Below are positions 534 through 56,430 of a stretch of DNA of 64,000 nt, piece by piece. The DNA comes from Oscillospiraceae bacterium (lineage in GTDB: Bacteria; Bacillota; Clostridia; Oscillospirales; Ruminococcaceae). The stretch covers positions 1,298 through 65,297 of the forward strand of contig JAJQIG010000038.1 of assembly GCA_021199335.1 (NCBI GenBank), read 5' to 3'. The notes beneath the pieces were generated by a model, which saw only the letters and a program-made list of their open reading frames with translations, did not search any database and was not told the origin of the DNA. The position numbers and the translations under genes are program-made. Position 1 is the first letter of the stretch, and the number at the start of each line of letters is the position of its first letter.

Positions 534-1029
534 AAAAATTCACCTCAGTTCGGACAAAACCAATACATATACAACTTCATCTTTAATTAATAATATAATA
601 ACACTTTGCAAACACTATGTCAATCAGCTTATCGCATAAACAGAAAGAATAATTTTGTGCATTTTTCATATTTATTAGCATATTATGCTGCTTTATTTTT
701 GTTACAAATGTGAATAAAATAGAATTTTCTTCCCAAAATGCATTTCGTATAAGTCTAAAGAACGATTGTTTTTGGGTTTCCATAAATCTTCCAAGGAATT
801 TTATTCGCTTTAAAGCCGTTTTGTGCGTTATGTATATTTATTATACGTCTTAATGTGTAAATTTGGTGATGTTTTTGGGTTCACTGCGGAAAAATGCACA
901 AAATTCCCGCTCCAATTTATCCCAAACAGCGCACATTTCATATTTTATGCCCAACCTTCGCAAAATATTTATAAAAAATATAGACATTTTCGTTTTTTTG
1001 AGTTATAATATATATTGATTATTTAGAGC

Positions 1030-1164
1030 AAATTAGCGAGAAGTCCCCCACTTTAAACGATAGATAAGCGGTGGGCGGAGAGAAATCGGTATCAATGCGT
1101 AATAGGTACGCATATCTGAATACGTATGTCGTACTCAGCGAAATTGCCGAGCGTGGATTGAAAC
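1030..1164 (+). repeat. Copy A of a dispersed ~135-nt structured element. Its last 37 nt (1128-1164) resemble a solitary type I-C CRISPR repeat
   Basis: Shares blocks AGCGGTGGGCGGAGAGAAATCGGTATCAATGCGTA and ACGTATGTCGTACTCAGCGAAATTGCCGAGCGTGGATTGAAACA with 5686-5839 and partly with 41173-41304. Lies downstream of a TAGACA-N17-TATAAT promoter (about 980-1008) and 25 nt upstream of the rsmD ATG. Confidence 0.6.
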
Positions 1165-4992: not shown

Positions 4993-5667
4993 ATGAGCAG
5001 TATTATAACCTATCGTTACATTAAACAAAATGAAGATATCCACACCTATATAAAAAATGCGGACGCAGCCGTTGCGGCGCAGGGCTACACGGAGCATTCA
5101 TTTGCCCACGTTGAAAGGGTTGCGCAGACAGTTGAAATGATTTTATCAACCCTCGGTTATCCCGAAAGGCAGGTTGAGCTTGGCAAAATTGCGGCATACC
5201 TGCATGATATAGGCAATGTCGTTAACCGAATTGACCACGCTCAGAGTGGAGCGGTTATGGCTTTCCGTCTGCTTGATAACCTTAATATGCCTGCGGAGGA
5301 AATTTGCGCCGTAATTTCCGCTATCGGCAATCATGACGAGCATACAGCACAGCCGCTTAACGCAATTGCGGCGGCGCTTATAATCGGCGACAAAACCGAC
5401 GTTCGCCGCAGCAGAGTAAGAAATGTCGAGAGCGTTAATCTCAGGGATGATATTCATGACCGTGTGAATTATGCCGTTGAGGAATCGAGAATTTATTTTA
5501 CAGAGGATAAAAAGGCAATCGTCCTTGAGCTCAGGCTTGATACGAATATTTCGTCTGTAATGGAATATTTTGAAATTTTCATGGATAGAATGCTGCTTTG
5601 CAGGCGTTCTGCGGAATTTTTTGGTATAGAGTTCAGAGCGAGAGTAAATGATACCGAGGTAATGTAA
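4993..5667 (+). CDS. HD-domain phosphohydrolase
   Basis: HSFAHVERVA...AAYLHDIGN...GNHDE HD-superfamily pattern. Confidence 0.7.
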   Translation: MSSIITYRYIKQNEDIHTYIKNADAAVAAQGYTEHSFAHVERVAQTVEMILSTLGYPERQVELGKIAAYLHDIGNVVNRIDHAQSGAVMAFRLLDNLNMPAEEICAVISAIGNHDEHTAQPLNAIAAALIIGDKTDVRRSRVRNVESVNLRDDIHDRVNYAVEESRIYFTEDKKAIVLELRLDTNISSVMEYFEIFMDRMLLCRRSAEFFGIEFRARVNDTEVM

Positions 5668-5685
5668 TTTAACCAAAATCATCAA

Positions 5686-5839
5686 GAATTCCCCCACTTC
5701 AACCAATAGGTAGGTGGTGGGTGGGATGAATTGCCAAAGGGAAAATTGATGGCAGCGGTGGGCGTAGAGAAACCGGCATCAATGCGTACCTTTGTAACGT
5801 ATATCGCACTCCGTTAAGTTACCGAGCGTGGATTGAAAC
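5686..5839 (+). repeat. Copy B of the dispersed element, with type I-C repeat-like 3' end at 5803-5839
   Basis: 32/35 and 37/44 identity to copy A in the two conserved blocks. Has an extra 5' hairpin TCCCCCAC...GTGGGTGGGA. Starts 19 nt after the HD gene stop. Confidence 0.6.
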
Positions 5840-5914
5840 AATGGCATAAGGCATAATTTGCTGCCGCAGTTTGCGCATTAATTATTGTAAATGTGTTAAA
5901 TTGTAAAAATGTGC

Positions 5915-7624: not shown

Positions 7625-7783
7625 ATTTTGTCGGGCAAATAAGAAACATTTGGCAAACCGCTTGTAAAATCCGTGCAATTGTGGTAAAATAAATGTTATA
7701 CGTTAAAATTACAGCTTGAGGATAATTCCCTGCTGCATTGAATTTCGGGGCAATTCCCCTTGTTAAACGAAAGGATGATATAA

Positions 7784-9070
7784 ATGGCAAAAAAACCTTT
7801 AGTGCCGATTACACTGCTTACAGGCTACCTCGGCGCAGGAAAAACTACTCTTATCAATCATGTCCTTAATAATCAGGAGGGCTATAAGGTTGCAGTTATA
7901 GTCAACGATATAGGTGAGGTTAACATTGATGCGGAGCTTATCCAAAAGGGCGGCACCGTTACCCAAAAGGACGATAACCTTGTTCCTCTTTCCAACGGCT
8001 GTATCTGCTGCACATTAAAGGTTGACCTTATGAATCAGATTACGGAGCTTGTTAAGACGGGGAAGTTTGATTACCTCCTTATTGAAGCAAGCGGAATTTG
8101 TGAGCCGCTGCCCATTGCGCAGTCCATTTCTGTTCTTGAGGGTAAGGTTGATAAGCGTTATCCTGCAATCTGCCGACTTGATAATATTGTTACGGTTGTT
8201 GATGCGCTGAGAATGGCTTCGGAATTCGGCTGCGGGGATAATCTGCTCAAGGATGATGTAGGCGAGGAGGATATTGAAAATCTCCTTATCCAGCAGATTG
8301 AGTTTTGCACAACAATTATTCTTAATAAGGTCGATAAGGTTACTCCCGACCAGCTCGGAAGAGTAAAGGCAATGATAAAAACCCTTCAGCCCAAGGCAAG
8401 AATTATTGAAGCAAGCTACGGAAAGGTTGAGGTTTCCGATATTCTTAATACAAACTGCTATGATTTTGAAGAAGCCGTTACCTCCGCAGGTTGGGCAAAG
8501 GCCTACGAGGAGGGCGTTCCCGATGATGATGAGGACGAGCATCACCACCACCATGAACATGACGAAGATGAACACGAGCATGAGCATCACCATGACCGCG
8601 ATGATGATGAGCATGACCATGAACACCATGAGCATCATTATGATGGGTTCGGAAATTGCAGCTGTGGGCATCACCACCATCACCATGACGAGGGCGAAGC
8701 CGAGGAATATGGCATAGGCACTTTCGTTTACCGCCGCCGCCGTCCGTTCAATCAGGATAAGCTCGGCGAGTTTATTGAGAATTGGCCCAAGTCCGTAATA
8801 CGCTGCAAGGGTATGCTTTGGTTCTCCGATGATAGGGATACCGCTTATGTTTTTGAGCAGGCGGGAGTTCAGATTAACGCCACCGATTCGGGAAAATGGT
8901 TTGCATCCGCCCCCGAAAAGGAAAGAAAACGTCTTTTGAAGCAGTACCCCGAAATCGAAAAGGATTGGGATGAAATATACGGCGACCGTGAAATAAAGCT
9001 CGTCTTTATCGGTCAGAAAATGGATAAGGCTGCTATCACAGAGGCGCTTGATAGCTGTCTTGATAAGTAA
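7784..9070 (+). CDS. COG0523/CobW-family GTPase metallochaperone (ZigA/YciC-like) with a long His/Asp/Glu-rich insert
   Basis: GYLGAGKTTL P-loop, GCICCTLK metal motif, and HHHHHEHDEDEHEHEHHH...GHHHHHHD insert. Confidence 0.85.
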   Translation: MAKKPLVPITLLTGYLGAGKTTLINHVLNNQEGYKVAVIVNDIGEVNIDAELIQKGGTVTQKDDNLVPLSNGCICCTLKVDLMNQITELVKTGKFDYLLIEASGICEPLPIAQSISVLEGKVDKRYPAICRLDNIVTVVDALRMASEFGCGDNLLKDDVGEEDIENLLIQQIEFCTTIILNKVDKVTPDQLGRVKAMIKTLQPKARIIEASYGKVEVSDILNTNCYDFEEAVTSAGWAKAYEEGVPDDDEDEHHHHHEHDEDEHEHEHHHDRDDDEHDHEHHEHHYDGFGNCSCGHHHHHHDEGEAEEYGIGTFVYRRRRPFNQDKLGEFIENWPKSVIRCKGMLWFSDDRDTAYVFEQAGVQINATDSGKWFASAPEKERKRLLKQYPEIEKDWDEIYGDREIKLVFIGQKMDKAAITEALDSCLDK

Positions 9071-20971: not shown

Positions 20972-21036
20972 TATTTCGGAGAATATTGTATAAATGAAAT
21001 CGGCAGAATTTCATGTGTAAAATGGGGGGAGCTTTC

Positions 21037-24000
21037 ATGCTTGTTATTTTATTGATTTTATGGCTTGTTTCGCCGATAGCGCTGACTATTTTTTGTATAG
21101 TCGATCGTAAGAAAATTTCTAAGCAGAAAAGCGTTATTAAAGAGCTTAGTGAGGAAAATGCCCGACTTAAAGGGAGGTATTCTTCATCGGAAGCCGCCGA
21201 ACAAGCAGAAAAAATCCTTTCGGAGGAAAAAGAAACGGAACAAAGCGCAGAGTCAAGATATGATACGTCCTATATGGGGAAGGCGGCAAAGCCCGCCGCT
21301 CCTGTGTGGGGCAAACCCGCAGATGTTCCGCCAAAGGCTGAAAGGAGACGGAAAATAAGCTCAATTAATGTTATGCTTATCCTTGGGGCAATGTTTATTA
21401 TTATCGCAGGGCTTATTTTCGCAACAACGGCATGGGAGTTTCTTTCGAGCGGAGTTAAAGCGGTTGTTATCTTTTCCTTTTCGGCAATTTTTTTCGGCGT
21501 ATCATCCCTTTCGGAGAGAAAATTCGGGCTTAAAAAAACAGGCGTGATTTTTTACACTCTGGGCAGCGTGTTTTTGCCCATAACTCTTGTTGCGGCGGGC
21601 TATTTCAGGGTTTTCGGCGAATGGTTCTCGCTGTTTGGCGAAGGGCGTCCCCTTCTGCTTGCGCTTACGTTTGCGCTCCTTTCCGCAGTTGGTCTTAAAG
21701 GAAGCGCAGATTACAAAAGTGCCCCTTTTGCGTGGGTGAACTTGGCAGGGTTTTCGGCGGCGGTATGCTCGCTCATTTTGCAGTTCACCGACAGGATGGA
21801 TATATTTGCGGCAGCTGCATCGATATACGGTCTTGTTGTAATTTTGATTTGCCGTCCGCTTTCAAATAAAACCTCGGAGAAATTTGGGGCGGTTATATCT
21901 CAGCTCGGAGTGTTTGCGGCGGTCAACACCGTTTTGCTGAGCATAAGCACGTTTATATCCGCCGCCGATAAGGGAAACGGTATCATGGTTTGTATAACAA
22001 GCGTGATTTTTGCCGTGGGATTTCTAAAACTGGCGGATATTCCGCTTGGCGATGAAAATGGTCTTGGCGCGGCTATACCCTTTGTGATTTTTATAACCTG
22101 CGGAATGCTGTCACTGTTTTCTCCCGATGATTTCGTCGGAGTGGTGCAAACCGCTGTTGCAGCCGCCGCAGTTCCCGTGGCGCTTTCGATGCTCGGAATT
22201 TTCTCTATCAAAATAAAATCGGCTCTTCGGGCTGTTTCGGGAGTCTTTGCATCGGCCCTGCTTGCGCTTTGCATTATAGCCGCCCTTGTCGCAGAACCCA
22301 CATGGATTTCCCTTGCCGCATATTGTATCCTTGCGGCGGAAATGCTCGTCCTTGGGATTTTTCACAGAGAGGAAAGCAACGGGAAAATTATGATTTCGAC
22401 TTTCCCTGCGGCGTGTGTTACGGCGGCGATTGTGTTATCAAGGCTTATTTTTAAATCTGCGGATATTGCGGACAGGACATTCTATACGGCGCTTACAGTG
22501 ATTCCCCTTATCGCCGTAATGCAGGCAGTGTTTGTGTTTGTTAAGCCACTGAAGCTGCGCACGGATTCTTCCGATTACATATTTGCGGCAGGTTCGCTTA
22601 TCTGCGGCAGCGTTGCATTGGGTATATGGGGCGAGGACAAAAGCTCGGCTCTTTATATGCTCTTGGGATTTGCTGTTTCCGCACTTACAGTAATTCTTCC
22701 GATAATCGGCGGAGCGGGTAAAATTAAAAGGATTCTTCTTGCCTCATCGTCAATGGCGTGGGGAGGATTGCTTGCGGAGATATTGAATGTATTTTTCCAT
22801 AACCCTGTTTACCCTATGACAATAACCTCCCTTGTTCTTTCGGCTGCGGCTCTTGCGCTTACATTCCTTCGCCCAAAGGATGATATGGAAATTGCCTCCG
22901 TAATTTGTCTGAGGGCTGTAACCGCTGTTTATATCCTTATCGGATTTGTTAATTATGAAACTGTATTCCCGCTTTTCTTGATTTTAACTGCGCTCTGCCT
23001 TGTAAGATTTTGGAGAAAGAAACGCATTTCGGAGCTTGTGGGAGGAATAATTCTTTCGTCATTTTCTGTTGGAGCAATTGCCTACGATGCTTTCGGCGCT
23101 GATATATATGATGCTGTCCTTGCGGCGGGAGCTGCCGCCGCAGTTATAAATGCGGCAATGCTGTTCATTGGCGGTGGAGGAAAATTTGCAAAAATTGCGG
23201 AGAGAACCTCACGTTACACCCTGTTTGCGGCAGCTTCCATAACAATGCTTGTCCTTGCTTCAACGGGAGCGTTCGATGCTGTGTATATCTCTGCGGCGGC
23301 ATTGCTGTTCCTCTATATGACGGTTTCATTTTACTGCGCTGAATCAACGGCTGCGCTTATTCTGCCGTTTTCGCTGCTTTATCCAACGGTCCTTAATTTG
23401 CTTGAAAACCGCCTGTTTGATGGATATTATTCATACGGCGTTGAGGGATATTATCCCGACTTCAATATAATAAATGTCACCATTTGCGTGATGCTTGCCG
23501 TAAGCATCGGGCTTAGCTATGCTTTGCACAGAAATGCGCTTCGGGAAAAGAGTAGAAATTCGTTTTACATAGACGGGCTTGCATTTTCAAGGATTATAGG
23601 TTTGATGTCATACTTTGATGCCTGCCCGTATAATGGGGATAAATCACGCTGGTTTGGGATTTTTCCTGCGGCAGCCTGCCTTATGAGCTTTTGCAGGAAA
23701 AATCAAAGGCCCGATTTCAGGAGGTGGATATACACCGTTTCGGCTGCCGCTCCGTTTACAGCGTTCATGGTTCAGCCGTTTGTTGAATTTAAGGAAATCA
23801 TTGCCTTGGAGATGCAAATTCTCCCCATTCTTCTTTACCTTTTTGCGATAAGATTCCTTTGGAAAAATCGCACCGGTGTCATTGACATAATCACCTTTGC
23901 CGCCTATGTTGTGTCCTATATTGTTCTCTTCTTCTCCGCATTGGTAAGCGGCGAGCTTGCGGACGGACTTATTATAATGATAACTGCCCTTGCGATGCTT

Positions 24001-24243
24001 ATATTCTCATTCTCGGTTAAAAAGAAGAAGTGGTTTGTGCTTGCGGTTACGGTGCTTGTCACAACTGCGCTCTTTATGAGCAGGGGCTTTTGGGCAAGCT
24101 TGGGATGGTGGGTATACCTCCTTGCGGCGGGATTGCTTCTTATTGCTATAGGTTCGCTTAACGAGATGAAAAAGCAGTCGGCAGATAAGGAGGGCGGCTT
24201 CAGAAAGAAACTCACAAGGTTTATGTCCGAATGGACGTGGTAG
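21037..24243 (+). CDS. Very large polytopic membrane protein (about 1068 aa), unknown function
   Basis: GGGGGAG RBS before the ATG at 21037. N-terminal TM, then a charged coiled-coil linker, then dozens of hydrophobic segments. Confidence 0.6.
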   Translation: MLVILLILWLVSPIALTIFCIVDRKKISKQKSVIKELSEENARLKGRYSSSEAAEQAEKILSEEKETEQSAESRYDTSYMGKAAKPAAPVWGKPADVPPKAERRRKISSINVMLILGAMFIIIAGLIFATTAWEFLSSGVKAVVIFSFSAIFFGVSSLSERKFGLKKTGVIFYTLGSVFLPITLVAAGYFRVFGEWFSLFGEGRPLLLALTFALLSAVGLKGSADYKSAPFAWVNLAGFSAAVCSLILQFTDRMDIFAAAASIYGLVVILICRPLSNKTSEKFGAVISQLGVFAAVNTVLLSISTFISAADKGNGIMVCITSVIFAVGFLKLADIPLGDENGLGAAIPFVIFITCGMLSLFSPDDFVGVVQTAVAAAAVPVALSMLGIFSIKIKSALRAVSGVFASALLALCIIAALVAEPTWISLAAYCILAAEMLVLGIFHREESNGKIMISTFPAACVTAAIVLSRLIFKSADIADRTFYTALTVIPLIAVMQAVFVFVKPLKLRTDSSDYIFAAGSLICGSVALGIWGEDKSSALYMLLGFAVSALTVILPIIGGAGKIKRILLASSSMAWGGLLAEILNVFFHNPVYPMTITSLVLSAAALALTFLRPKDDMEIASVICLRAVTAVYILIGFVNYETVFPLFLILTALCLVRFWRKKRISELVGGIILSSFSVGAIAYDAFGADIYDAVLAAGAAAAVINAAMLFIGGGGKFAKIAERTSRYTLFAAASITMLVLASTGAFDAVYISAAALLFLYMTVSFYCAESTAALILPFSLLYPTVLNLLENRLFDGYYSYGVEGYYPDFNIINVTICVMLAVSIGLSYALHRNALREKSRNSFYIDGLAFSRIIGLMSYFDACPYNGDKSRWFGIFPAAACLMSFCRKNQRPDFRRWIYTVSAAAPFTAFMVQPFVEFKEIIALEMQILPILLYLFAIRFLWKNRTGVIDIITFAAYVVSYIVLFFSALVSGELADGLIIMITALAMLIFSFSVKKKKWFVLAVTVLVTTALFMSRGFWASLGWWVYLLAAGLLLIAIGSLNEMKKQSADKEGGFRKKLTRFMSEWTW

Positions 24244-41040: not shown

Positions 41041-41080
41041 TTTGTCAATATGTATTTTAAAAACATATTGACAAATTTTA
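41041..41080 (+). terminator. AT-rich perfect 13-bp hairpin terminator
   Basis: TTTGTCAATATGT...ACATATTGACAAA followed by TTTTA. Confidence 0.55.
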
Positions 41081-41172
41081 GCTGTTATAATACAATATAT
41101 ATTGTATGGTTGTGATGAAAGGAATTTCAGCACAGGCAGCAATGATTTCCTTTGCTCCTATGGCGATGGGAT

Positions 41173-41304
41173 AAATTGCCGAGAAGAAAATTGGCGGCAG
41201 CGGTGGGCGGAGAAAAGCGATATCCCCGCTGACACAGGTTCAATCCATTTGCGCATAACTGCACATATACCATGTTTCAATAATATGCCGAGCGTGGATT
41301 GGGA
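41173..41304 (+). repeat. Copy C (divergent) of the dispersed element
   Basis: Shares AATTGCCGAGAAG, GCAGCGGTGGGCGGAGAAAA and GCCGAGCGTGGATTGGGAT. The central part is unrelated to copies A and B. Confidence 0.5.
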
Positions 41305-41326
41305 TAATAAAGGATGGATTTGTCAA

Positions 41327-42067
41327 ATGAAAAAAATTATTTCAATTTTTGCGGCAGTGACTGTAATGCTCTCGAGCTCGGCATTTGCCGCTTCTGCGGA
41401 AACGACTTCGGCGGATGATGCCGCTACATATTGCTTCGATTCCGATGTTTCCCTCGCTCAGTGGGAAGCCTATGGTTCAACGGCCGAAACGGGATTTTCG
41501 TTAAGCATAGATACCTCGATTAAGGAATCGGGCGATGGTTCACTTTGCGTAAGCGAAAATATTGCGGAGGATATTGATGCCGACAGCAGGTTCGGCGGGA
41601 CATACGTAAGCGCAGGAACGCTCGGGCTTGAATCCTTTAAGGGCTGCACGATTGAGATGTCGGTTTATCTTGATGAAGATGCAGCGGTTGCGGGCGGCTC
41701 GTTCACGATGTTTTCGGACGGAATAGTATGGCTGACCTCTGCAGTCACCTCGGAAAATGCCGGCAAATGGGTAACGCTTTCGTTGACCGTTCCCGAAAAT
41801 GCGGATAATACAAGAATTGGATTTACAATTCCTGTTTTCAGTCAGTATAACGGTAAAGCAGCGTATGTTGATAACCTCACCGTTTACAGCTCAGACGGAA
41901 CAGCTATTGCAAATGTTGGCGACCAAAAGATTTCTTCGGGTTCAATAGTGGTTTCACTCAGCACGGGTGCAAGAATTGCGCTTTTGATAGTGCTTGTTAT
42001 AATTATTGCGGCAGTTGTTGGAGGAATAGGATTTGTTGTTTCTTCCTTTATAAAGAGGTTTACTTAA
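41327..42067 (+). CDS. Secreted, C-terminally membrane-anchored protein with a carbohydrate-binding-module-like beta-sandwich domain
   Basis: Signal peptide MKKIISIFAAVTVMLSSSAFA, a CBM4/9-like pattern and a terminal TM. Confidence 0.5.
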   Translation: MKKIISIFAAVTVMLSSSAFAASAETTSADDAATYCFDSDVSLAQWEAYGSTAETGFSLSIDTSIKESGDGSLCVSENIAEDIDADSRFGGTYVSAGTLGLESFKGCTIEMSVYLDEDAAVAGGSFTMFSDGIVWLTSAVTSENAGKWVTLSLTVPENADNTRIGFTIPVFSQYNGKAAYVDNLTVYSSDGTAIANVGDQKISSGSIVVSLSTGARIALLIVLVIIIAAVVGGIGFVVSSFIKRFT

Positions 42068-52002: not shown

Positions 52003-53919
52003 TTACATTGTCATAAGGCTCGATGATTTTTTCTTAAGGTCGGAGGAAATACCTTTAACCGTGTCGGTCGATGCCGCAATTTCCTCTGTGCTTGCCGCAA
52101 GGTTCGTCATTCGTTCATTAACGCTGTCAACAATTTCAAGCAAACGGTCTGATTCATCAAGAAGCAGATCCATTGCAGTGCTTATCTGTTCCTTGTTTGA
52201 GTTGCTGTCAACGGCAGCGGCGCGGCTCTTTTCCGAAAGGTTCTTTATTTCCTCCGCAACAACTGCGAAGCCCTTTCCCGCTGCTCCCGCATGAGCGGCT
52301 TCAATTGAAGCGTTCAGCGACAGAAGATTTGTTTGGCTTGCTATGCTGCTGACGGCGTTGTTATTGCTTTCAAGATTGCCCAAAAGACCGACTATATCGG
52401 AGAAGGAGTTTTTCAGCCTTTCGCAGAAATCCACAACCTCCGCCATTGAGCTTGTTATTTCTGTGCTTTCCTCCGCATTGTTGCTGTTTCCTTCAGCCAT
52501 CTGCTTTACGGATAGGTCAAGGCTTTCCAAATCCTCGTTAAGCTCCCTCGCAACCTCCGCAATCATATCGCTGCGGCGGCTTATCTCGATATTAGCTTCG
52601 GCAGCCTGTCTGCCCTGCTCCTCAACCTCGTCCTTGATGTAATGAATGCAGGAATCCTTGTGGTTGCATCCGTTGAAAATAGCGGCAGCCATCTGTTCGC
52701 AGGATTCATATCCGCAGGCGCCGCAGTTGATTTTGCGCTGCTCACGGGTTATTTTGTTCATTTGGTTGAATATGCTGTCAGCCTGTATGCTGTCGGGCTT
52801 GTTTATTTCATGTCCATGTGATTTATCGGTGTAAACCCTTATAAAGTCGTTAAGGTTTAGCTTTGAAAATTGGCGATTAAGCAGCTTGAGCCTTTGAGCG
52901 GGGGTGCTTTTTACTGCCCATGGACCGCCTGAGGGCTTTGTGCTGTTCTTTTTTATTTTCTGAATTTCGTATAAGGTGTCGTCGCTCTTGGTTTTTTCTT
53001 CTTCAACGCCTGTTCCGTACAAGCATCCCGAACCGCAGTTGAGAGCATCGACCATAAACGGAAGCTCCTTACCCTTGATTACCCTGTCCTTATAATCCTG
53101 CAGGAAAGCATATGCGTGTTTTTCCCCTTCAATTTGGCGAATAAATACATCATTGCCGCAGAACCAGTACACATTTTCCTTTAGTCCGCCGGGCATAGGA
53201 TAGATTGAACCGAGTCCGTATTCAATTTCATCGGTTGCATTTCTGCCGCCAATGTTATTTTCCCTTACATATTTCATAAGATGATCGAACGTAACGTTGT
53301 AGGATATGTAGCCGTAATTGTTTGGATCCTCGATCTCATTCTTTTTTGCGATACATGGGCTGATGAACGCCAGCTTATCCGTAATATGTTCATATTTCTT
53401 TGCATATATTGCCGCGCACATCATAGGGCTGTGAACAGGCATAAGATTCGGAAGAAGCTCGGGAACGTAATGCTCTATGTAATTGACGATTGCGGGGCAC
53501 GGCTGGGATATTCCGCCATAATATTTATTCTGCGTAATATAATTGATATATGCCCATGTGGTAATATCCGCGCCGAAGCTTACGCTTATAATGCGGTTAA
53601 CGCCAAGCTCCTTTAATCCGCCGAGAACAGTTCCGTATTCGTTCGGATAATTTGCCAAAAAGGCAGGGGCTAGGAGAAGTGAAATTCTTTCTCCCTTTTT
53701 AAGATCCTCAAAAAATCTCTCCGTATCGTCCTTGAATGCTCTTGCATTATGCTCGCACGCATCAAAGCAGGCGCCGCAGTTGATGCATTGCTCCGAATTT
53801 ACCTCAATGCGAGCCTTCCCGTTCCGTACAACCGCTTTGTTTGCAGTCAGCATAGGACAAACCGAAATGCATTTGTTGCATCCGATACAGTTATCGTTTG
53901 TATAAACAAAACCAGCCAT
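52003..53919 (-). CDS. Sensory [FeFe]-hydrogenase-like protein fused to a methyl-accepting chemotaxis (MCP) signalling domain
   Basis: Two ferredoxin motifs ([24 protein letters not shown]). H-cluster-like motifs ([23 protein letters not shown]). An extra Cys cluster (CGACGYESC...C...C). MCP hairpin tip ([34 protein letters not shown]). No TM segment. Confidence 0.8.
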
Positions 53920-55963: not shown

Positions 55964-56079
55964 GAAATTGCTAATTTTTGTGGTTTTTTCATAGATTATT
56001 AGTGAAAAAACACGCTTGAAAAAGGGGGAGAAAAATAGTATACTATTTAGTTGTATGCATACAATAAAATTTAATATGC

Positions 56080-56430
56080 GAACGGTGCTTCGGTGCAAAG
56101 CTTTTGCAGCCGAAGATAATAGGGAAACAGGTTGGAATCCTGTGCGATCTCGTCACCGTATTAAGGGAATGAACGGACTGTGATGTTTTATCGGTCACTG
56201 GCGAAAGTCGGGAAGGCTGTCTGTTTGTGATGATCTTTAAGTCGGGAGACCTGCCGTTTGCAAGTACAGGGAAAAGCCGTTAAAGCGCTTTTCTCAGATC
56301 ACGAGGTATTGATCGTACATAGCGGATATTGCCGTTTGGCAGTATCTTTGTTTGCTGTGCCTTCTTTATGTTTCGTAAGGAAAGGCATTTTTTCTACGTC
56401 AATGCCTCCGATAAAAATGAATCGGAGGAT
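56080..56430 (+). ncRNA. Cobalamin riboswitch. Aptamer is about 56080-56262; the expression platform has a terminator (56358-56398) and an RBS-sequestering hairpin (56405-56428)
   Basis: AGGGAAACAGGTTGGAATCCTGT...CGTCACCGTA, B12-box-like GGTCACTGGCGAAAGTCGGGAAGGC, and AGTCGGGAGACCTGCC. Then TGCCTT...AAGGCA followed by TTTTTT, then CCTCCGAT...ATCGGAGG covering the GGAGG RBS. Confidence 0.9.

Follow-up and report, generated by a model that had tools for sequence, protein, structure and literature searches.

A short mobile element of gut Clostridia ends in a type I-C CRISPR repeat-like segment and may carry a homing guide RNA

The window analysed here is a stretch of 64,000 nucleotides (nt) from Oscillospiraceae bacterium (assembly GCA_021199335.1, contig JAJQIG010000038.1, positions 1,298-65,297, forward strand), and it holds three decayed relics of a family of mobile elements. 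The element is non-autonomous and about 185 nt long, its insertion target is TTTAA (TTCAA at other sites), and it is common in gut and rumen Clostridia, where it was found in Lachnospiraceae and Ruminococcus genomes and in gut metagenomes. Judged by sequence, its terminal 37 nt are homologous to the repeats of type I-C CRISPR systems and not a chance likeness. We tentatively read the element as an IS200/IS605-like non-autonomous transposon that carries a homing guide RNA, and we put the probability of this reading at roughly 0.45. An earlier interpretation of the window, made without database searches (the sequence-only reading), had described dispersed units ending in a solitary I-C-like repeat; the analysis adds that these units belong to a mobile element of ~185 nt, non-autonomous and structured, that occurs in many genera.

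The three plus-strand copies claimed in the sequence-only reading, called A, B and C, were all found in the window. Specifically, the 14-mer CCGAGCGTGGATTG has three exact matches there, against a mean of 0.34 in shuffled sequences even with two mismatches allowed, and the G-rich block AGCGGTGGGCGKAGA matches exactly only at these same copies. A family profile run against the 64 kb with nhmmer returned exactly three matches (1022-1165, 5668-5840 and 41125-41306; E-values from 1e-27 to 4e-36), with no further match below E=0.1. Outside the window, a scan of one genome per species with the pattern GGTGGGCG-N50-80-CCGAGCGTGGATTG gave 40 loci, 8 of them GC-rich chance matches and 32 true relatives. 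These relatives lie in Diplocloster hominis (11 near-identical copies), D. modestus, Enterocloster hominis (5), Hungatella hathewayi, a Hungatella metagenome-assembled genome (MAG; UBA5385), [Clostridium] symbiosum, Blautia schinkii (3), three Lachnospiraceae MAGs (6), two Ruminococcus MAGs (6) and a goat-rumen isolate. A metagenome scan with the core only (GGYGGGCGGAGARNAATYGGTAT) added at least 120 loci, mostly on human-gut contigs. In all, there were 164 profile matches, from which 143 elements were extracted; these form 47 clusters at 93% identity and have 81 distinct flanks at the 5' side and 91 at the 3' side. The family is thus abundant in human-gut and rumen Clostridia, including Enterocloster, Hungatella, Blautia, Diplocloster, Ruminococcus and the Fusicatenibacter-like host of the commonest gut subfamily.

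Viral and plasmid collections gave a different picture. The core pattern had no match in IMG/VR, PLSDB returned none either, and a viral scan with the 14-mer CCGAGCGTGGATTG yielded 120 chance matches and no family member. INPHARED contains six virome contigs labelled 'Bacteriophage sp.' that carry the element; a phage origin of these records was rejected, as they consist of bacterial ychF-lgt DNA. Three records with this label from human faecal viromes (L161-L163; GenBank MT835706, MT836829 and MT835696) carry ychF, lgt, mraZ and glutamine synthetase III genes and are probably bacterial DNA in virome preparations. Separately, a lone CCGAGCGTGGATTGAAAC without scaffold lies at ~12922 of a viral contig in IMG/VR (L097), which could be due to chance or to a solitary repeat-like unit. 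The core sequence has no match in the searchable literature.

That the element is mobile follows from its copies and from its alleles. Within D. hominis, and likewise across Enterocloster, Hungatella and C. symbiosum, near-identical copies stand in unrelated flanks, and conservation begins at TTYAAC and stops at GAAACAA. One clean pair of empty and filled alleles, the only one of its kind, lies downstream of a glutamine synthetase III gene, where the flanking protein is 99% identical between lineages. The empty allele reads GAGGTTTAATCCGCAGACG (short form GAGGTTTAATCCGCAG; junction core GGTTTAATCC), and the filled allele reads GAGGTTTAAC-[element]-GAGTTGAAACAATCCGCAGACG (right side also given as GTTGAAACAATCCGCAG; junction cores GGTTTAAC...GAAACAATCC). 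A second case, at ychF-lgt, comprises four contigs without the element whose YchF is 97-98% identical; the spacer there has diverged and the comparison is less clean. Because empty and filled alleles could be compared, the target can be read as TTTAA or TTCAA: the insert can be described as AAC...GAAAC within TTT^AA or, to the same effect, as C...GAAACAA following TTTAA, with no target duplication beyond the 2-nt AA overlap. The empty sites also corrected a first candidate, TTYAAC as the target, to TTYAA, with AAC being part of the element or overlapping it. A logo of the left flank anchored on AAC has T at 80%, T at 85% and T at 70% or C at 27%, with nothing conserved further out, and no terminal inverted repeats were found in the element family.

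Orientation adds to this picture. Of 84 distinct sites, 71 show positive GC skew on the strand of the element, and at 71 most coding sequence lies on that strand too; since GC skew and gene direction are correlated, this evidence is indirect. Copies are mostly in the leading-strand orientation. The immediate downstream gene is co-oriented at 50 of 72 sites and lies on the opposite strand at the other 22. Such figures agree with an insertion mechanism, or a selection, coupled to the leading strand and do not fit a dedicated regulator in 5' untranslated regions. Such a regulator, a cis-acting leader RNA that serves the downstream gene as a riboswitch or protein-binding attenuator, could be suspected from the position of copies A and C, each between a promoter-like site and a start codon, from the many relatives that end 15-40 nt before an ATG and from the conserved, complex fold. 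It is nonetheless very improbable: the genes that follow the element have no relation to each other (rsmD, a secreted protein, ileS, ABC-F, lgt, wecG and others), 22 of 72 lie on the other strand, no terminator or platform sequestering the Shine-Dalgarno sequence was found at copies A and C, no Rfam family matches, and the near-identical copies within genomes together with the empty and filled alleles largely refute it.

The insertion signature resembles that of the palindrome-associated transposable elements (PATEs) of the IS200/IS605 group, which are likewise small and protein-less, insert 3' of a short T-rich motif, lack inverted repeats and target duplication, carry subterminal hairpins and are biased in orientation. 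Insertion 3' of a motif without duplication or terminal inverted repeats was found here, and an orientation tied to replication is indicated indirectly. TTTAA is itself a known transposon-adjacent motif (TAM) of an IS605/TnpB element, ISAam1 (PMC12908284). The likeness has limits: no relative bearing tnpA or tnpB was seen in the flanks of about 150 copies and the two end hairpins are unlike. Miniature inverted-repeat transposable elements (MITEs) are also short, non-coding, multi-copy and intergenic; unlike them, the element has neither terminal inverted repeats nor a clear target duplication, and its orientation bias is strong.

The right end of the element is where the CRISPR connection lies. 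Published I-C repeats end in GCGTGGATTGAAA(C/T), as in Roseburia hominis (GTCGCTCCCTGTGAGGGGAGCGTGGATTGAAAT) and Bacillus halodurans (GTCGCACTCTTCATGGGTGCGTGGATTGAAAT; PMC6519985), and the consensus quoted in the sequence-only reading was essentially right. Among 120 I-C arrays fetched, the commonest repeat is GTCGCACTCCGCAAGGAGTGCGTGGATTGAAAC, which has been assigned to gut Clostridia genomes (PMC8530359); a variant with one base changed in the loop and a final T lies beside a complete I-C operon, cas3-cas5c-cas8c-cas7-cas4-cas1-cas2, in Emergencia timonensis (PMC10213047). Intact members of the element family read GTCGCACTCCG...CCGAGCGTGGATTGAAAC in their terminal 37 nt. More precisely, the end is GTCGCACTCCG-UUAAAUUAC-CGAGC-GTGGATTGAAAC, whose first 11 nt (GTCGCACTCCG) and last 12 nt (GTGGATTGAAAC) are identical to GTCGCACTCCGCAAGGAGTGCGTGGATTGAAAC, and both share a 3-nt 5' overhang and a distance of 12 nt from stem base to end. 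Intact members thereby have the 5' GTCGC (in full GTCGCAC), the palindromic stem, the 3' GCGTGGATTGAAA(C/T) and the 11-nt handle of an I-C repeat, and end in GCGTGGATTGAAAC. They differ from I-C repeats in length (37 versus 31-33 nt) and in an interrupted stem with a loop of 8-13 nt: compared with GTCGCACTCCGCAAGGAGTGCGTGGATTGAAAC, the loop is expanded and the 3' arm shortened from GGAGTGC to CGAGC. We call this degenerate I-C repeat psiR; its stem has a 2-nt bulge and a long loop, and copies A to C of the window are mutated further.

The proposal that the units end in an I-C-like repeat was therefore borne out for the terminal 37 nt, by the 11 + 12 nt of identity, the hairpin-to-handle distance and covarying basal pairs, whereas two of the meanings offered for it fared less well. 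An unrelated RNA that converged on this sequence is disfavoured by the 23 identical bases. Orphan CRISPR leaders with a first repeat, or the remains of decayed arrays, would account for a repeat-like unit that lies 3' of a conserved, leader-like segment of ~150 nt. This explanation is hardly credible. The scaffold followed by a second handle or repeat at array spacing had 0 matches in metagenome contigs, there is one unit per locus in place of an array periodicity (spacers of ~33-37 nt), no arrays lie in the flanks, and the alleles are precise insertions at unrelated intergenic sites. Comparing the family profile with the repeats and leaders of the 120 I-C arrays gave a divided answer: the repeat part matches (model positions ~121-185), and the leaders are dissimilar to the scaffold. 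The Rfam search that the sequence-only reading had proposed found no matching family. At gathering thresholds Rfam 15 has none for the element, the window's only match being a cobalamin riboswitch, and permissive scans of copies A and B and of the elements at loci L149 and L163 gave sub-threshold CRISPR-DR9 or DR2 matches or nothing, with DR9 covering the last 37 nt only.

Two observations on arrays stand beside this. A natural array repeat ending in GGAGCGTGAGTTGAAAC exists on a 392-kb contig (L292; IMGVR_UViG_3300021077_000115) with at least 14 repeats GTTACATCGCTCCTGAGAAGGAGCGTGAGTTGAAAC; the variant handle GTGAGTTGAAAC thus occurs in real CRISPR repeats. On a gut metagenome contig (L251, ~7713-8500), an unrelated CRISPR array whose repeat contains GTTTGAGAATGATGTAAA lies ~4.7 kb from a copy of the element, probably by coincidence.

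The remainder of the element is a scaffold that folds onto its repeat-like end. On the sense strand of an intact copy (e.g. L149), AAC and ~15 nt are followed by a hairpin, P1, which begins ~16-20 nt inside the left end; its 5' arm is rich in C, its loop varies and its 3' arm is rich in G and contains a bulged base. Then comes GAUGAAUUGCC... and a second hairpin, P2, in which CAGYGG-U-GGG pairs with CCCCCRCUG around an invariant 17-nt loop, CGGAGAGAAAUCGGUAU. After P2 follow CAAUCCAC(GC), a variable hairpin P3 and GUC-GCACUCCG-loop-(U)ACCGAGC-GUGGAUUGAAAC. P4 pairs CAAUCCAC(GC) with the handle, (GC)GUGGAUUG, and P5 is the short hairpin that the stem of the degenerate I-C repeat forms; the P2 loop is complementary to the arms of P5 as well. 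A small open reading frame (ORF; AUG AGG...) in the gut subfamily was rejected as a coding sequence, the AUG not being conserved (ACG or GCG in other subfamilies).

The sense-strand fold was examined on the nhmmer alignment and by manual counts of pairs in 35 non-redundant sequences, and its conservation is shown for P2, P4 and the base of P5. RNAalifold recovers P2 and P4, and a single-sequence minimum free energy fold recovers P1 to P5 (-60.9 kcal/mol, z = -1.9). P2 has four pairs with two-sided changes; P4 covaries at three positions (C-G/U-A, G-C/A-U and C-G/G-C), so that compensatory changes are seen where the handle is paired to the upstream anti-handle; and the two basal pairs of P5 occur as GC in 22 and AU in 10 sequences, and as CG in 14, GC in 11 and UG in 10. 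Over the whole structure 95.4% of cells are paired, compared with 41-48% when partners are slid, and the covariation score was reached by 0 of 500 shuffles. The covariation that the sequence-only reading had seen in the pair closing the loop (C-G in copy A, T-A in copy B) did not hold up, this position often being unpaired across the family; what truly covaries is the pair of base pairs at the foot of this hairpin (GC:GC, AG:CU, GG:CC). The P2 loop, furthermore, is complementary to two repeat-like stretches, CGGAG with CUCCG and UCGGUA with UACCGA. These two helices are 99% paired, with all variation G-U compatible and one-sided, which suggests a double pseudoknot between the P2 loop and the repeat-like segment.

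Unlike a bare I-C repeat, the repeat of the element is thus embedded in a scaffold of ~150 nt that pairs with it. In this it recalls the tracrRNA:crRNA (trans-activating CRISPR RNA and CRISPR RNA) duplexes and natural single guides of type II and V systems, in which an anti-repeat, here CAAUCCACGC, pairs with the guide-adjacent part of the repeat within a larger pseudoknotted scaffold. Unlike type II and V guides, the element has no associated Cas9 or Cas12 gene, and type I-C works without a tracrRNA.

Several loci depart from the full-length form. In a short derivative (L189, L237), TTGAAAC directly follows P2 and its loop, and a ribosome-binding site comes next; this form is an internal deletion that keeps core and end. 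Other short forms (L160, L129/L253) start at or near the foot of P2, again preceded by TTTAAC; 5' of P2, an internal (A/C/G)TTAAC may provide an alternative left end. At L193 the handle carries a 15-nt tandem duplication at the 3' end (GCGTGGATTGAAACA twice) with no spacer-sized insert between.

The fold also bears on whether the transcript matters at all. The element could be selfish at the DNA level only, its hairpins and junction being single-stranded DNA signals for an HUH transposase, its I-C-like end a captured repeat reused as the right-end hairpin, and its transcript without function. Insertion that is site-specific, orientation-biased and free of inverted repeats speaks for this, as do the lack of a partner protein nearby in the flanks, the tolerance of copy B for an indel and a G-block mutation within one species, and a right-end hairpin-to-end distance that resembles the one in IS608-type ends. 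Yet the most conserved part is the internal 17-nt loop and not the ends, the two partners of this loop change in a pairing-compatible manner (27 G-U compatible changes versus 3 breaks), and the many U-G pairs of P4 would be C-A mismatches on the opposite strand. Moreover, the subfamily of copies A and B lost one arm of P2 and kept the loop and its partners, and 23 bases identical to a resident CRISPR repeat would be superfluous in a transposase hairpin. We regard a purely DNA-level element as rather unlikely.

A homing guide RNA is the function suggested by the junction. In the sense direction a transcript reads handle|AA+flank, the handle ending at GAAAC by homology with real repeats, and the alleles read TTY|AA+flank when empty and AAC|AA+flank when filled. 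The protospacer-adjacent motif (PAM) of type I-C is given as 5'-GAA-3' for the target strand, which makes it TTC when read along the spacer sense (PMC6519985). PATEs without genes often encode omegaRNAs used in trans (PMC10055086), and solitary single-psiR units are processed by Cas5c and used by the I-C Cascade in other bacteria (bioRxiv 2024.12.27.630466); like those units, the element consists of one psiR followed by non-repeat sequence. A TTTAAC TAM was not reported in the TnpB literature searched, nor was the ISAam1 omegaRNA sequence found in the supplements searched. TTT is a weaker variant of the I-C PAM in some systems.

These data are compatible with a model in which the element moves by a single-strand mechanism of the IS200/IS605 type, with an HUH transposase (TnpA) supplied in trans, while its transcript would serve as a homing guide RNA made of scaffold, repeat-like handle and flanking DNA as guide. 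The transcript ...UGGAUUGAAAC|AA+flank would match the vacant site TTY|AA+flank next to a T-rich motif that can be read either as an I-C PAM (TTC/TTT) or as a TnpB TAM (TTTAA), and the occupied site would be protected because AAC replaces this motif. An RNA-guided nuclease encoded in trans would then cut vacant sites, after which recombination would restore the element or cells that lose it would be penalised. Of the two parts of the model, the HUH, IS200/IS605-type mechanism is the better founded and probably applies, and the guide-RNA function has somewhat less than an even chance.

The effector would be either the host's I-C Cascade-Cas3 or a TnpB-like protein encoded elsewhere. Host Cascade, possible if on the unlikely side, is favoured by the identity with the repeat and by the TTY motif. 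In that case a protein-less transposon would hijack the class 1 (type I-C) CRISPR-Cas system of its host for its own maintenance, an idea that we rate as unlikely: read-through transcription would produce a crRNA-like RNA with 'AA + flanking DNA' as its spacer, the only perfect target with a TTC or TTT PAM would be the element-free allele TTY|AA+flank, and Cascade-Cas3 would attack vacant sites while occupied AAC|AA+flank sites stay immune. A dedicated TnpB-like partner, rather unlikely in our estimate, is favoured by the large pseudoknotted scaffold that sequesters the handle. In its predicted architecture the element fits a TnpB omegaRNA, with a structured scaffold that ends at the right end, so the flank would serve as guide, and a guide-adjacent segment that pairs with an upstream one; with TTTAA as TAM, the guide would be the flank that follows GAAACAA. 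It differs from the RNAs of IS605 orfB in having no match to the Rfam families built on these. The element might also, in a related view, be a trace of evolutionary kinship connecting right ends of the IS605 type with class 1 repeats.

A number of findings weigh against the homing guide RNA. All-against-all clustering of the ORFs in flanks of 8-14 kb around ~150 copies found no recurring tnpA, tnpB or cas family, the only broad cluster being generic ABC ATPases; among these copies no longer parent element and, in the flanks, no autonomous relatives that share the ends and encode tnpA or tnpB were seen, and upstream of 5'-truncated copies there are ordinary genes and no tnpB-like ORF. The end hairpins P1 and P5 are unlike in sequence and arm order, whereas those of IS608-type elements are alike, and the AA junction leaves a 2-nt ambiguity in the boundary of the element. 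For Cascade in particular, P4 and the pseudoknots sequester the handle and the hairpin arms that Cas5c would need, a scaffold of 150 nt is unnecessary, and the optimal TTC stands at only ~27% of sites, with TTT at most of them. In the commonest gut subfamily, furthermore, the segment now reads GUC-AG-ACUCCG...CCGA-CU-GUGAGUUGAAAC, P4 and P5 having changed in a compensating manner; the handle GUGAGUUGAAAC and the changed stem of this subfamily depart from the I-C consensus. Finally, the covariation of the pseudoknots is weak and consists of one-sided changes only; their positions are also compatible with a simple interrupted hairpin, and the loop was fixed by the search patterns. As the scans needed exact core or end patterns, the invariance of the P2 loop, and in the genome scan of the 3' block as well, is inflated.

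The repeat-like end might also engage Cas proteins without any homing, as a decoy or antisense RNA that titrates the I-C proteins Cas5c, Cas7 or Cas8c or pairs with the repeats of pre-crRNA, in the manner of RNA anti-CRISPRs (Racrs), or as a regulator of the type of crRNA-like RNAs (crlRNAs). Racrs and crlRNAs derived from solitary repeats are established (PMC10651486; bioRxiv 2024.12.27.630466), the key parts of the repeat are identical and have the same geometry as in I-C repeats, the anti-handle CAAUCCACGC is complementary to every I-C repeat handle, and genomes often hold many copies, frequently in transcribed leaders. Known Racrs, in contrast, reside in phages and plasmids and crlRNA units in cas operons, while the element is absent from IMG/VR (core pattern) and PLSDB and, being part of a mobile element, is scattered over the chromosome in intergenic sites next to housekeeping genes. 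Its 'spacers' are arbitrary flanks, hence there is no common regulatory target, its repeat-like part is already paired in cis, and the benefit to a tiny chromosomal transposon is not evident. Such a role is distinctly unlikely.

If the homing guide RNA is used by the host's Cascade, the family would show selfish elements exploiting adaptive immunity by a new route, would give gut bacteria a new source of self-directed CRISPR activity and would be a class 1, host-borrowed counterpart of homing by TnpB and omegaRNA. If it is used by a TnpB-like enzyme, it would be an omegaRNA with a guide-proximal module homologous to I-C repeats, which bears on the relation between CRISPR repeats and transposon ends. 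In either case the family joins an IS605-like insertion signature to a guide-shaped 3' end that resembles class 1 repeats. To our knowledge, small non-coding transposons bearing guide RNAs have so far been described only for TnpB and IscB systems, and CRISPR repeat mimics only from phages, plasmids and cas operons; we know of no omegaRNA whose guide-adjacent module is homologous to a class 1 (I-C) repeat.

Within the window, the family profile placed the 5' ends of copies B and C further 5' than the sequence-only reading had put them. The refined features, all on the plus strand, are as follows.

981..1009, plus strand: promoter-like site TAGACA-17-TATAAT (11/12 matches); a start here would fall a few bases 5' of copy A
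1025..1164, plus strand: copy A, decayed, in the rsmD-coaD leader (family alignment; nhmmer E=1.4e-27)
1067..1092, plus strand: G block of copy A, AGCGGTGGGCGGAGAGAAATCGGTAT, the P2 5' arm and invariant loop, the loop being complementary to CUCCG and UACCGA of the repeat-like segment
1128..1164, plus strand: degenerate I-C repeat (psiR) of copy A, GTCGTACTCAGCGAAATTGCCGAGCGTGGATTGAAAC; Rfam CRISPR-DR9 at 16 bits, far under the gathering score
5671..5839, plus strand: copy B, 3' of an HD-domain gene (stop codon at 5665-5667) and 5' of the pyrG promoter (nhmmer E=4e-36)
5803..5839, plus strand: psiR of copy B, ATCGCACTCCGTTAAGTTACCGAGCGTGGATTGAAAC
41068..41096, plus strand: promoter-like site TTGACA-17-TACAAT (11/12 matches), upstream of copy C
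41129..41305, plus strand: copy C, in the leader of a gene (ATG at 41327) whose product is secreted and membrane-anchored (nhmmer E=4.9e-33)
41269..41305, plus strand: psiR remnant of copy C, ACCATGTTTCAATAATATGCCGAGCGTGGATTGGGAT, with 5' arm and handle end both decayed

As had been claimed, the 3' block ends in GAAAC in copies A and B and in GGGAT in copy C, where the end of the handle is mutated, and none of the copies has a second repeat or spacer periodicity. Copy A is preceded by TTT at 1022-1024, starts with AGA and not AAC, and lacks both the segment between P1 and the G block and the P2 3' arm; its equivalent of the 11-nt handle, TGGATTGAAAC, occupies 1154-1164, with AA next at 1165-1166. 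Genes for RsmD (PF03602) and a CoaD-like protein were identified 3' of it, and copy A would be the 5' leader of rsmD (ATG at 1190) if the promoter-like site starts transcription. Copy B has the target TTT at 5668-5670, the element start AAC at 5671-5673 and AA at 5840-5841, its TTTAA target lying directly 3' of the TAA stop of the HD-domain gene. Its P1 is intact (5690-5727), its P2 3' arm is missing and its G block has a G-to-T change (CGTAG in the loop). This copy is polymorphic within the species: an 18-nt direct duplication, ATGCGTACCTATGTACGC, is present or absent in P3 (window 5780-5800; L289, L291), and a same-species MAG (GCA_965297625.1) has a further G-to-A change in the G block. Copy C, downstream of a gene for an EF-G-like protein, is preceded by TTC at 41126-41128 and has a degenerate P1, an intact P2 (41198-41207 paired with 41224-41231) and a P4 formed by CAATCCA at 41241-41247 and TGGATTG at 41295-41301. 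Because copies A and C are sited between promoter-like sites and the start codons of rsmD and the secreted-protein gene, both are probably transcribed as parts of host 5' leaders.

The family has practical consequences. It places a structured RNA in many 5' leaders, including that of rsmD in the window, it creates presence and absence alleles at gene ends, and it breaks assemblies. Breaks fall inside copy A, as expected for a repeat; three independent short-read assemblies of this species (Logan contigs L165-L167) end 118 nt upstream of rsmD, inside copy A at ~1072.

The gene content of the window comprises rsmD, coaD, pncA/pncB-like genes, pyrG, glycogen genes, an hrcA-dnaK region, hydEFG and cobalamin genes. 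Among 30 window proteins scanned against Pfam there was no transposase and, in agreement with the sequence-only reading, no cas gene product, and all that matched were housekeeping proteins. A few neighbours deserve mention in their own right. A cobalamin riboswitch (RF00174, 97.9 bits) at 56066-56272 on the plus strand lies directly upstream of genes for a CbiK-type cobalt chelatase and an ABC transporter. The ORF at 7784-9070 encodes a CobW/HypB/UreG-family GTPase with an internal repeat rich in His, Asp and Glu (8521-8643, plus strand), which at the DNA level is a degenerate repeat with a period of 12-15 nt and looks like a metal-binding linker. An ORF of 1076 amino acids at 21013-24243 on the plus strand has no Pfam match at E<=1e-5. 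On the minus strand, at 52003-53919, a [FeFe]-hydrogenase large-subunit domain, ferredoxin-type clusters and a methyl-accepting chemotaxis signalling domain are combined in one protein, which adjoins hydE/F/G-like maturase genes and may be a sensory hydrogenase fusion.

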